This document shows, piece after piece, positions 5,062-7,737 of a DNA stretch of 64,000 bases. Every line of letters begins with the position of its first letter. The stretch's first letter is position 1. The translations under genes and the position numbers were made by a program. The notes beneath the pieces are model-generated. The model had not been told where the DNA came from. It saw nothing but the letters and a program-made list of their open reading frames with translations, and searched no databases. This DNA comes from Alphaproteobacteria bacterium. GTDB taxonomy: Bacteria; Pseudomonadota; Alphaproteobacteria; UBA828. The DNA is taken from the NCBI GenBank assembly GCA_965221125.1, contig CBDCRW010000006.1, forward strand, positions 480,001-544,000. The letters are read 5' to 3'.

Positions 5062-5280
5062 CGAGGCGCTGCCGTCACGAGGTCATGCGATCGTGCGGGG
5101 GCGGCCGGGCGCGTGCGGAGTGGCGGCCGGGTGCAGGGAGTGGGGAGGGCCCATGGCGGCGCGGATTATGGGCGGTGCGACCGGCCCCGTCGAGGTGCGG
5201 GAGAGGGCGGCCGGCGGCACCGCGCCATATTTCTGTCGCATTCGTGGGTAGTCTTGGTGTCGACAGCCGGGGTGAACGAC

Positions 5281-5360
5281 ATGCGGCCTCTTCGCGCACA
5301 ACGCTGGCTCGAAGGCCGCACGCCGCGATGGCGGAGGGCGCTCGTTGTGGGCTGCGCCTT
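5281..5360 (+). pseudogene. 5' fragment (signal peptide N-region) of IS-interrupted secreted protein
   Basis: MRPLRAQRWLEGRTPRWRRALVVGCA joins in frame to LVLIGLAMAVTPAAPLRA at 6994-6996 once the IS is removed at the CTT core. Confidence 0.75.
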
Positions 5361-5372
5361 CCGTAATGGGGC

Positions 5373-5799
5373 GGTTGATGTCAAACACCGATCTTCACGA
5401 TCTTCCGGCCTGGCACGGTGGCTCGCACATGAAGCACCGTAGCCTGTTGCAAATCGAATCACAGGCGCGGTCAACATAGCGGATTGCCATGGCGGGAGCG
5501 GCTAACTGACTCGTCTGCGCGGCAAAGAAGGAAGCGGGATTCCCGGATGTGTCCGTCGCCAGGCTCTCGCTTCCGTCCGTGGTCAGCGCAGCGGCTGCCA
5601 ACGTCATGCCTGGTCCAAACGATTCCCGAGTGCCGATCTTGGTCGCGTGCTCGAACGCGATGAAACGGTTCGGCCGACAAGACGCAGCGCGTGCATCAAC
5701 GGGAACCGCGTCCCGGCGAGGGGACACCGGTGGATCGCCACCTTCAGGCGCGGCTCTTTCCTCCTCTCGCTTCCGATTGCCGGTGGGATGCAGCCGCGC
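5373..5799 (-). ncRNA. candidate bridge RNA / seekRNA region (exact ends unknown)
   Basis: About 430 nt non-coding, 3' of the IS1111-type recombinase, with local hairpins. Target-matching segments at 5678-5688 and 5638-5644; donor-junction match at 5400-5407. Confidence 0.65.
5379..5384 (-). promoter_or_regulatory. outward-facing -35 box TTGACA of the IS circle-junction promoter
   Basis: TTGACA then 17 nt then GAAGAT forms only across the circular junction; the linear context reads GAAGGC. Confidence 0.6.
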
Positions 5800-6843
5800 C
5801 TATGCCGTCTGGAGCGCCATCGCCTCCTCGCGCGTGAAGCGGAACTCGGTGCCGTCCCGCCACATCCGGTGAAGTACCACGCCGATGCGCCGGGCCAGGG
5901 CGACGGTCGCACGCTTCTTGCCACGGAGCTTCGCCAGACGAAGCGCCCAGGCCTTCAGCCAGTTCGGCCCGGCGGTGCCGTTCAGCATCACCGTGGCGGC
6001 CTGATAGAGCGCGGTACGCAGACCTGCGTCGCCGCACTTCGTGATGCCGCCGACAATATCTCGCTCGCCGGATTGGTCCCGGCCCGGCGTCAGTCCCACC
6101 CAGGGGCCGACATCCTTCGATCTCCGGAACCGCCCGGGATCGTCAATCGCCGATTTGAAGGTCAGGGCCACGACCGCGCCTACGCCGGGCATGGTCATCA
6201 GCAGCCGGCATACCGGATCCTCCCTGGCCAGATCGCGGACCAGCTTCTCCAGGCCGGCCAGCTCGCGGCGCAGAGCCACCCGCGCGCGCAGGATCGGTTC
6301 GGCGGCGGCCTCCAGCATCGCGTTGCCTGCGATCAACTCCCGGACGCGGGCCTCCCAGCGGCCCTTCGAGACCTGGCCCAGCTTCAGGCCAAAGTTGCGC
6401 AACACGCCGCGCAGCGAGAGTTCCATATCGGTGAGCGCGCCCTTCACGGACCTGCGCGAGGTCAGCAGTGCGCGCATCTCCTGCGACGATACCGACTTGC
6501 AGTGCACCGGCCTGAACCAGCCCATCTGCAAGAGCCGTGCGATGCCCTCGGCATCCCGGCGATCCGTCTTGATCGGCATCGCCTTCAGCGCTGCCTTCAC
6601 CCGCCGGGTCTCCATAAGGACGGCCTCGAAGCCGGCGTCGGTCAGCCCCTTGTGCAACCAGTGGGACAGGGGACCGGCCTCAAGACCGATCACGGCGATC
6701 TCGTGCTCCAGCTTGCCCATGAACGCAACCAACGCGTCAGGCGTGCTGGCGACCTGAGCCTCGGTCACGATCTTGCCCTTGTCGCCGATCACGCAGATTG
6801 TCGTGCTTGCCAGCGATACATCCAGCCCGATATAGACAGCCAT
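5800..6843 (-). CDS. IS110 family transposase/recombinase
   Basis: N-terminal RuvC-like DEDD domain (YIGLDVS, GLEAG, KTDRRD); C-terminal Tnp20-type domain (PGVG, GLTPGRDQSGE with catalytic Ser, GGITKCGD, VALARR). 347 aa from ATG 6843. Confidence 0.95.
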   Translation of the reverse strand: MAVYIGLDVSLASTTICVIGDKGKIVTEAQVASTPDALVAFMGKLEHEIAVIGLEAGPLSHWLHKGLTDAGFEAVLMETRRVKAALKAMPIKTDRRDAEGIARLLQMGWFRPVHCKSVSSQEMRALLTSRRSVKGALTDMELSLRGVLRNFGLKLGQVSKGRWEARVRELIAGNAMLEAAAEPILRARVALRRELAGLEKLVRDLAREDPVCRLLMTMPGVGAVVALTFKSAIDDPGRFRRSKDVGPWVGLTPGRDQSGERDIVGGITKCGDAGLRTALYQAATVMLNGTAGPNWLKAWALRLAKLRGKKRATVALARRIGVVLHRMWRDGTEFRFTREEAMALQTA

Positions 6844-6995
6844 GTCGTTGCCCTTTCCTCTCGAAGGATTGGGGCGCGCCTTCCGGCAAGACCCCGTGAG
6901 CACGCTGAGCGTGCAAGGGCAACGACACCCGATTCGTCGTCATCGGGACAGGCTCCGATGGTGCCGATTGGCGCCGAGCCCCATTACGGCATCTT

Positions 6996-7737
6996 GGTCC
7001 TGATCGGCTTAGCCATGGCGGTGACCCCGGCTGCCCCTCTCCGCGCCGGCGAAGCGGACGCCGCGCACGCGTCGCCCTGGGCCGCGGCCGCCGCCGAGGC
7101 GCGCATCCTGGCCGACCGCATCCTGCAGCGGGAGAGCGACGACCTGATACTGGACGGCAAGCGCCGGCGCGCGCTCGGCCACGAGATCAAGCAGGCGCTG
7201 TTGCTCATCCGCCGCGAATATCCGGCGATGGCGGACGTTTCGGTGCGTCAGGACGACCGCGGGGCGGCGCTCGTTCTGGGGCTGGAGGGCGCGCTGCGCG
7301 ATGCAGTCTTCGCCGCGTGGGACGGCGATGGCGGGGACGCGCCGCCGGCGACCGGGCACGGGGCGTTCGATGCCCTGGGCGCCGGGCTCGGGCTCCGGGC
7401 CGTGCAGGCGTACCCCGCTCTCGACTCGGCCGTTCTGTACCTCGACGAGCGCGCGAACGTCGCTGCGGCGCTGCGGGCGTATCGCGCGATCGACGGCGTC
7501 GGCTACGCCGAGCCCGACGCGATGCTGGGCGACGGCTCCGATATCGAGGCCGCCAAGGCAGACGGGCACTGGCATTTCGTCTTTCGCCGGGCGTGGGGCG
7601 ACTGCCCCGCCGGCTGCATCGACGAGGAACTTTCGTTCTTCACCGTGGCGGACGGAGAGGCCGCGCTGATCGAGCCCGCCCGGGCGCGCGCCATGGACGC
7701 CTTCGCCGCTCTCGTCGCCACCAGAGGCTGGCGCTAG
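6996..7737 (+). pseudogene. 3' fragment of IS-interrupted secreted hypothetical protein (WGDCPAGCI motif)
   Basis: Coding-like tail of ORF 5647..7737; carries the h/c-region of the signal peptide (APLRA) and a C-terminal FRRAWGDCPAGCIDE motif. Confidence 0.75.

Follow-up and report, generated by a model that had tools for sequence, protein, structure and literature searches.

An IS1111-Group Insertion Sequence with a Probable Two-Module Guide RNA in an Alphaproteobacterial Genome

Introduction

How does an insertion sequence find its target, and how are its own ends read? The question is raised by an element at positions 5361–6995 of a stretch of 64,000 nucleotides (nt), referred to throughout as the window, from an alphaproteobacterium of the UBA828 lineage (GenBank assembly GCA_965221125.1, contig CBDCRW010000006.1, positions 480,001–544,000). 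An earlier note on this DNA had described an RNA-guided IS1111 element. That description and its two target guides stood; what it gave as core length, hairpin and donor guide did not. The element is very probably an IS1111-group insertion sequence whose DEDD recombinase is guided by a two-module RNA from the 3′ non-coding region (NCR) and recombines at an AG core.

RNA-guided recombinases of the IS110 and IS1111 kind are under development as genome-editing tools, and the IS1111 branch is less well understood. The published descriptions already cover RNA guidance in IS1111 and IS110, the location of the IS1111 RNA on the 3′ side, how the matches are ordered, and both natural and engineered retargeting (PMC11187229, PMC11208160); bridge RNAs have been predicted computationally for 93% of the ISfinder IS1111 entries. 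The present element thus adds to a known system rather than forming a new one, and the only point beyond the available parts of these texts is the evidence that one IS1111 subfamily has a module that reads the donor. Six copies and dozens of relatives with different guides provide a base-by-base map of one IS1111-type RNA, with a guide of 9–11 nt and one of 7 nt for a target of 14 nt and, besides these, a probable donor module. With this map, compensatory mutations could test directly whether the ends are read by RNA.

Ends, Core and Target Consensus

The element lies on the minus strand, and its ends are composed as follows.

5361–6995, minus strand: whole insertion sequence, 1635 bp with the shared core counted once; exactly the same span in six copies of the genome
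6995–6999, minus strand: left target half, element strand GACCA (GACCA in five of six copies, TACCA in one)
6988–6994, minus strand: left-end extension of 7 nt, AGATGCC, made up of the core AG and ATGCC
6978–6989, minus strand: left subterminal inverted repeat (IR), 12 bp, the reverse complement of CCGTAATGGGGC
5361–5372, minus strand: right subterminal IR, CCGTAATGGGGC on the plus strand, conserved among relatives
5358–5360, minus strand: right-end CTT, element strand AAG, the AG core and one further base
5351–5357, minus strand: right target half, element strand GCGCAGC here and ACGCAGC in the copy consensus, from comparison of the six flanks

The genome (seven contigs, 4.58 Mb) contains six full copies and one 258-bp left-end fragment. 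Similarity among the six ends 4–10 nt beyond 5361–6995. All six share one orientation, each inserted into a variant of a single 14-nt site where nothing beyond the core is duplicated, and every insertion falls within an open reading frame (ORF). The left/right flanks on the element strand are GACCA/GCGCAGC in the window and GACCA/ACGCCGC, GACCA/ACGCAGT, GACCA/ACGCGCT, TACCA/ATGCGGC and GACCA/ACGCAGC in the other copies, giving the consensus target GACCA-AG-ACGCAGC. The NCR is identical in 6/6 copies, and the 347-amino acid (aa) ORF is intact in five (four identical, one with a single substitution) and broken in the sixth. The element is intact and recently active. A search of the same genome for the empty target returned no perfect 14-mer and five sites with one mismatch; the reversed-pattern control gave the same count, so these numbers carry no information on the depletion of sites.

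Relatives were collected by a scan of one genome per species, with 80 loci kept of 479 confirmed. Their proteins are 69–100% identical, and most come from marine alphaproteobacteria and metagenome-assembled genomes (MAGs). Both ends were not found by pattern in 22 of the 80, and these were included as half sites only. Three distant plasmid elements (L088–L090, 38–55% identity) have undefinable ends and were excluded from all counts.

The earlier note had reported 12-bp subterminal IRs, a CTT at both ends (5358–5360 and 6993–6995) and a 439-nt 3′ NCR, and each was recovered; the NCR runs from the gene stop, which ends at 5800, to 5361, and the 5′ side measures 152 nt. The 3-nt shared core that it had proposed was replaced by a shorter one. 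On the left, the relatives read flank, AGAT(G/A)(C/T)(C/T) and then the IR, the extension being present in 58 of the 59 loci with a left end; the remaining one has an N. This is the 7-bp left-extension rule given for IS1111 members in PMC11187229. On the right, the IR is followed by (G/A/C)(G/A)AAG and the flank, so that 3 nt and the core beyond the IR are kept in the relatives. The base preceding the left-end AG is A in all six copies of this genome and varies among relatives (c/t/g/a). The family-wide core is therefore AG (CT on the plus strand), of 2 nt. From the sequences, the third base of CTT belongs to the target of the present element and would be read by both guides.

Target Guides

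Two segments of the NCR match the two halves of the target.

5678–5688, minus strand: target guide T, RNA GCUGCGU-CU-UG, complementary to element-strand (C)A-AG-ACGCAGC
5636–5644, minus strand: target guide B, RNA GACCA-AG, the left flank and core, followed by an invariant AU

Guide T, which the earlier note had placed as GCUGCGUCUUG at 5688→5678 in the RNA sense, was confirmed as the plus-strand word at 5678–5688 and is an exact complement of the consensus target over 11 nt. Compared with the flanks of all six copies, as the note had suggested, it fits one site at 11/11, three at 10/11 (the window copy included), one at 9/11 and one at 8/11. Since the consensus is complemented exactly, the single G:U pair noted earlier is a deviation of the window site and not of the guide. 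The second proposed segment, GACCAAG at 5644→5638, likewise proved to equal the left target and core, and both guides fit the six-copy consensus better than the window copy's own site. An AU follows the core of guide B in 72 of 74 modules and is the same as the two bases with which the left end begins.

To see how often such matches arise by chance, the 427-nt NCR was put through 5000 dinucleotide shuffles. A match of at least 10/11 to the window site occurred in 58 and the exact 7-mer GACCAAG in 164, and none of the 5000 contained both matches in the right order, 20–80 nt apart. The pair of target guides is thus beyond chance. An 11-mer search across the 64-kb window, with 2 matches against 2.2 expected, was uninformative and was not used.

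For the relatives, the modules directly 3′ of the transposase gene were scored in the 80 loci and the window; 76 were found and 74 used, L036 and L057 being dropped from guide scoring for an interrupted module. The T region was scored against the reverse complement of the core and 8 nt of right flank, and five nucleotides of guide B against the left flank. Guide T reached at least 8/10 in 25 of 58 distinct own guide/flank pairs, against 15 of 2088 cross pairs; guide B reached at least 4/5 in 31 of 53 own pairs, against 43 of 1749. Leaving out the many copies of a single Kordiimonas MAG, the counts are 24/44 for T and 29/45 for B. The 16 loci outside the alignment used for the RNA structure gave at least 8/10 for T in 5 of 10 scorable cases and at least 4/5 for B in 5 of 9.

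Among the 15 closest relatives (proteins at least 83% identical), hypervariability is confined to islands at the guide columns, with a mean pairwise identity of 0.48 for T and about 0.2–0.4 per column for B, while the surrounding RNA is 0.88–0.94 identical. In these comparisons the guides vary along with the target, which is the natural reprogramming that PMC11187229 reports for ISEc11/ISXne4. The top-strand match lies 5′ of the bottom-strand match, which is the IS1111 order of that description.

RNA Structure

The structure of the RNA was derived from an alignment (A1) of 34 distinct modules, corresponding to 5551–5758 of the window on the minus strand, with the near-duplicates L050 and L061 left out; it was folded with RNAalifold. 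Four helices result.

5710–5725, minus strand: hairpin P1, GUCCC/GGGAC, nearly invariant and with hardly any variation for covariation
5693–5709, minus strand: 5′ strand of stem P2, helix counts from A1
5619–5633, minus strand: 3′ strand of stem P2, closing the target-binding loop; 12 pairs, 98.5% of cells paired, 5 pairs changed on both sides
5649–5674, minus strand: hairpin P3 between the target guides, base 5674–5670 with 5654–5649, variable tip
5579–5602, minus strand: hairpin P4 between the two donor guides, 5602–5594 with 5587–5579; 8 pairs, 99.3% of cells paired

The consensus structure has 95.2% of cells paired, a figure that drops to 23–40% when the pairing partner is slid by 1–3 columns. 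Twelve pairs are changed on both sides, against 5.4 in shuffles, and none of 500 shuffles was as high. The long, interrupted stem P2 (5709–5693 with 5633–5619) encloses both target guides, which lie in unpaired columns. P3 has five pairs with 98.8% of cells paired, three of them compensatory (A-U in 19 and G-C in 9 sequences; G-C in 23 and A-U in 6), and the P4 pair 191/214 is A-U in 19 sequences and G-C in 14. At two P2 pairs, G-U pairs in 20 and 14 sequences fit the gene strand only. A covariance model built from A1 finds exactly the six insertion sequence copies in the own genome and no RNA-only copy. It also detects the module behind the transposase gene in 18 loci outside A1; its score for L089 is only 25 bits, and L088 and L090 yield no match.

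Certain helices were not retained. A long-range pairing of alignment columns 5–12 with 171–179 and a CGG/CCG helix within a donor guide, both proposed by RNAalifold, were dropped for little covariation; columns 5–12 are also part of a stem-loop after the stop codon (5748–5799, minus strand), which is predicted from a single-sequence fold only (z −0.88). A closing helix of module 2, CCAGGC/GCCUGG (helix 4), is paired in only 77% of cells.

A number of results weigh against a guide RNA of this form. Poor fits are common, with T at 5/10 or less in 18 of 58 pairs and B at 2/5 or less in 6 of 53; most of these insertions come from the one Kordiimonas MAG with rearranged copies, and they are assumed to have inserted off target or to have been rearranged later. 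Counting the structure on the alignment from which it was derived favours it. Single-sequence folds of the whole NCR and the modules are no better than shuffles (z −0.60, −1.51 and −0.37) and were therefore given no weight for the structure, and a search of 5200–7200 against Rfam found nothing near a gathering score. In the minimum-energy fold, the two target guides pair with one another through their core parts, which follows from both guides covering the core.

Reading of the Element Ends

The second module contains two segments that correspond to the ends of the element itself. These are listed together with a segment proposed earlier.

5606–5610, minus strand: candidate donor guide DT, RNA GGCAU, complementary to ATGCC of the left-end extension (6992→6988)
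5570–5576, minus strand: candidate donor guide DB, RNA ACGGAAG, the same sequence as the right end (AAG preceded by the final 4 nt of the IR)
5400–5407, minus strand: donor guide candidate of the earlier note, CGGAAGAU, not supported

ACGGAAG is identical to the right end at 7/7 positions and could pair with the bottom strand. At this position, 38 of 42 distinct modules are fully Watson–Crick, three have one G:T wobble and one has a mismatch. The RNA follows the variants of the end: ACAGAAG occurs in five modules of two separate groups, ATGGAAG and ACCGAAG in one each, and L025 has ACGAAAG in both its right end and its RNA. The GGCAU position is fully Watson–Crick in 35 of 41 distinct modules, with a wobble in four and one mismatch in two, and it changes to GGUAU, GACAU and AGCAU in step with left extensions ATACC, ATGTC and ATGCT. 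On the basis of these sequence changes, it is reasonably likely that the element ends are read by RNA via the second module. With moderate confidence, the long seekRNA of this IS1111 subfamily may be regarded as a bispecific bridge RNA, in which case the element ends could be reprogrammed like the target and the AU after guide B would form a handshake pair. The likeness of this invariant AU to the handshake guides of IS621 is one of analogy only. If true, such bispecific reading would answer two questions left open in the available text of PMC11187229, what purpose the long seekRNA serves and by what means IS1111 ends are recognised.

Some features of the second module count against this. GGCAU is only 5 nt long and has no core pairing, as GA stands next to it where CU would be needed, and its two Gs could pair within the RNA in helix 4. 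The element ends are almost invariant, hence there are few independent changes on the donor side. These points lend something to the alternative of a target-only seekRNA, in which the protein reads the ends via the 12-bp IRs, module 2 is a scaffold or processing signal, and its likeness to the ends reflects shared ancestry or chance. An 82-nt short seekRNA of ISEc11, which lacks such a module, sufficed for transposition and even outperformed the long one; the same report (PMC11187229) states as unknown what the latter does and how the ends are recognised. The correspondence of ACGGAAG with the right end and the way in which both donor segments follow their respective ends speak against a target-only RNA, as do possible donor-binding nucleotides that Durrant et al. 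report in IS1111 bridge RNAs (PMC11208160). It is accordingly regarded as improbable.

A version in which the core is programmable over 3 nt, the guides are separated by a hairpin at 5643–5660 and CGGAAGAU (5407→5400) is the donor guide, as had been proposed in the earlier note, is far less probable still. All three features are in the window sequence, and the A before the left AG in six copies agrees with the longer core; the variation of this base among relatives disagrees with it. The inverted repeat of the hairpin is present but not conserved, as it is 60.8% paired on the 34-sequence alignment against 60.2% in shuffles, with 201 of 500 as high; by the consensus model, the conserved hairpin base between the guides is 5674–5670 with 5654–5649. 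When any of 12 junction-spanning words was allowed on either strand, a junction-spanning 8-mer arose in 337 of 5000 shuffles, which places CGGAAGAU at chance level. It occurs in 4 of 37 distinct NCRs and sits in the poorly conserved NCR tail, although the circle junction is almost invariant in the family. In the same tail, at 5388–5410 (…CGGAAGAUCGUGAAGAUCGG…), GAAGAUC is found twice, each like the junction word GAAGAU; it is shared by the closest relatives only.

A mode of action in which the guide segments work as DNA, the element's single strand pairing with the target in the manner of IS200/IS605, is scarcely credible: covariation of NCR and flank alone cannot distinguish RNA from DNA, but the protein belongs to a family with experimentally shown RNA guidance and the many G-U pairs of the conserved helices fit a gene-strand transcript.

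Proposed Mechanism

The anatomy, the copies, the target consensus, the covariation of guides with flanks and with ends, and the conserved helices are observations; the sequence of events that would connect them is proposed as follows. The RNA is probably made by read-through from a promoter at the circle junction and then processed, as judged from the family, and its binding to the protein and a circular intermediate are likewise presumed from the family. The conserved part, of roughly 190 nt (about 5725→5545), would comprise two modules. Module 1 would form the target-binding loop closed by stem P2. Its 5′ guide would pair with the element-strand target over the core AG and 7–9 nt of the right flank; after hairpin P3, the 3′ guide consists of 5 nt of the left flank and AG, and so would pair with the other strand. 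Together the two would read GACCA-AG-ACGCAGC. Module 2 would be a probable donor-binding loop, in which GGCAU pairs with ATGCC and is followed by hairpin P4 and ACGGAAG, and would thereby read the circle junction. Recombination would take place at the shared AG (CT) core.

Module 1 measures about 100 nt and both modules about 190 nt, in agreement with the seekRNAs of PMC11187229, for which the description gives 82–96 nt (short) and 148–172 nt (long).

Transcription and Traces in RNA Libraries

One feature near the right end bears on the synthesis of the RNA.

5379–5384, minus strand: TTGACA, candidate −35 box, followed after a 17-nt spacer by GAAGAT across the circle junction

The hexamer GAAGAT forms only where the right and left ends join, and TTGAC is conserved at the matching distance from the end, being present in 35 of the 37 distinct NCRs. 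A search of the linear element gave no complete sigma-70-type promoter and no intrinsic terminator. By analogy with ISEc11 (PMC11187229) and IS621, for both of which a junction promoter has been described, TTGACA and GAAGAT are inferred to form a circle-junction promoter.

Public runs with the labels sponge, marine or coral metagenome contain the element. In four RNA libraries, which belong to three studies, contigs span 5351–5749 and other parts at a depth of 2–13; one library is deeper and has variant letters. These contigs indicate presence and not transcription, as such libraries can hold DNA, and this limits what they add in favour of a guide RNA. No start, end or strand can be read from them, and no circle junction was seen; a gap in the cover is no evidence either way. 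Their loose ends show other flanks with 5351–5360 and 6996–6999 in common, consistent with the 14-nt target. One contig joins 5735 to 5797, without 5736–5796 and hence without the predicted stem-loop that follows the stop; the NCR therefore also exists in nature as a deletion variant.

The Transposase and Known Systems

5800–6843, minus strand: transposase/recombinase gene, 347 aa, with Pfam, NCBIfam and IS621 structure matches

The ORF (6843→5800) matches the N-terminal DEDD, RuvC-like domain PF01548 (2.6e-16) and the C-terminal Tnp domain PF02371 (6.7e-22), which carries the GL-P----S/TG motif. Against the NCBIfam model NF033542, "IS110 family RNA-guided transposase", it scores 251 bits with a cut-off of 140. 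Solved structures matched include IS621 chain 8wt6_A (E 3.8e-13) and the ISCro4 recombinase (6.4e-13). The segments YIGLD, GLEAG and KTDRRDA align opposite D11, E60, D102 and D105 of IS621, the N-terminal stretch of this alignment being weak alone, and GLTPGRDQSG aligns with GLTPRRYESG at the catalytic S position. The DEDD domain, the Tnp motif, the subterminal IRs with extensions and the longer 3′ NCR place the element in the IS1111 group of the IS110 family. Its 12-bp IRs lie within the 7–17 bp, with terminal extensions, that define the group. The identification as a complete IS1111-type element made in the earlier note is thus upheld.

ISEc11, ISPa11, ISKpn4 and ISPst6, as described by Siddiquee et al. 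2024 (PMC11187229), resemble it in several respects. They have a DEDD transposase of ~340 aa, subterminal IRs, a 7-nt left extension, no target duplication and a long NCR 3′ of the gene; their guide matches overlap at the insertion point, close relatives are naturally retargeted, and the short and long RNA sizes fit module 1 and modules 1 and 2. Going by these descriptions, they differ in their targets, that of the present element being a linear 14-nt site inside genes and not REP or attC. The available text names no donor-matching segments, whereas module 2 of the present element matches both ends.

The bridge RNA of IS621 (PMC11208160; Hiraizumi et al. 2024, PMC11208158), according to the accessible descriptions, shares the order of a target loop and then a donor loop, each with one guide per DNA strand around a stem-loop, and the dinucleotide core CT. 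Invariant bases beside its guide match the partner DNA, as the handshake-like AU does here, and its catalytic D/E/D/D and S are aligned with those of the present transposase. IS621 carries its RNA 5′ of the gene, whereas the present RNA lies 3′ and has the reverse order of guides within a loop. Unlike IS621, the present element has long subterminal IRs and one donor guide without core pairing, and the protein match is confined to the C-terminal half (E 3.8e-13).

IS4321 and IS5075, named IS1111 members of enterobacterial plasmids, are alike in domain content, but across about 82% of the protein the identity is no more than about 26%. The nearest relatives (69–95%) are unnamed elements of marine alphaproteobacteria and MAGs. 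ISPpu9, with its Ssr9 RNA (PMC12288879), is described as a member of the IS110 family in which an RNA gene follows downstream of that for the transposase, as here. It has extra RNA-only copies, whereas none were found in the present genome with the covariance model, and RNA-only repeats were seen only in the Kordiimonas MAG.

Host Genes and Rearranged Copies

To the host genome, this is an ordinary insertion sequence that disrupts genes. In the window, a plus-strand ORF (about 5281–5360 joined with 6996–7737) is split by the element, and a host gene is thus disrupted. The break lies inside an apparent signal peptide, a basic stretch followed by a hydrophobic run that spans the empty site. On contig 5 of the same genome, a copy (L006) is found after codon 3 of the gene of an HU-like DNA-binding protein (MTK|TQLVASL...); this copy has a broken transposase gene of 57 aa with 21 extra bases. 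The contig of another MAG (L029) has a 100%-identical element with a right flank of the same kind as L006, and a further copy (L003) is located in a truncated look-alike of the start of the HU-like gene. Read from their translations, the ORFs interrupted by L004 and L002, also in the own genome, resemble a group II intron reverse transcriptase and ring-opening amidohydrolases. The left-end-only fragment (L007, contig 6, about 220871–221126, 258 bp) is 96% identical, and its flank misfits guide B.

In the Kordiimonas MAG, further copies of the RNA module lie downstream of the element and lack a full transposase gene (L047, 2571–3958; L037, L042, L051 and L083). L047 has three units with a period of 581 nt and 581/581 identity, each made up of the 3′ end of the gene, the NCR and the right end. 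Several right flanks in this MAG equal internal stretches of the NCR, which suggests that words resembling guides or ends within other copies served as insertion sites or as partners in recombination.

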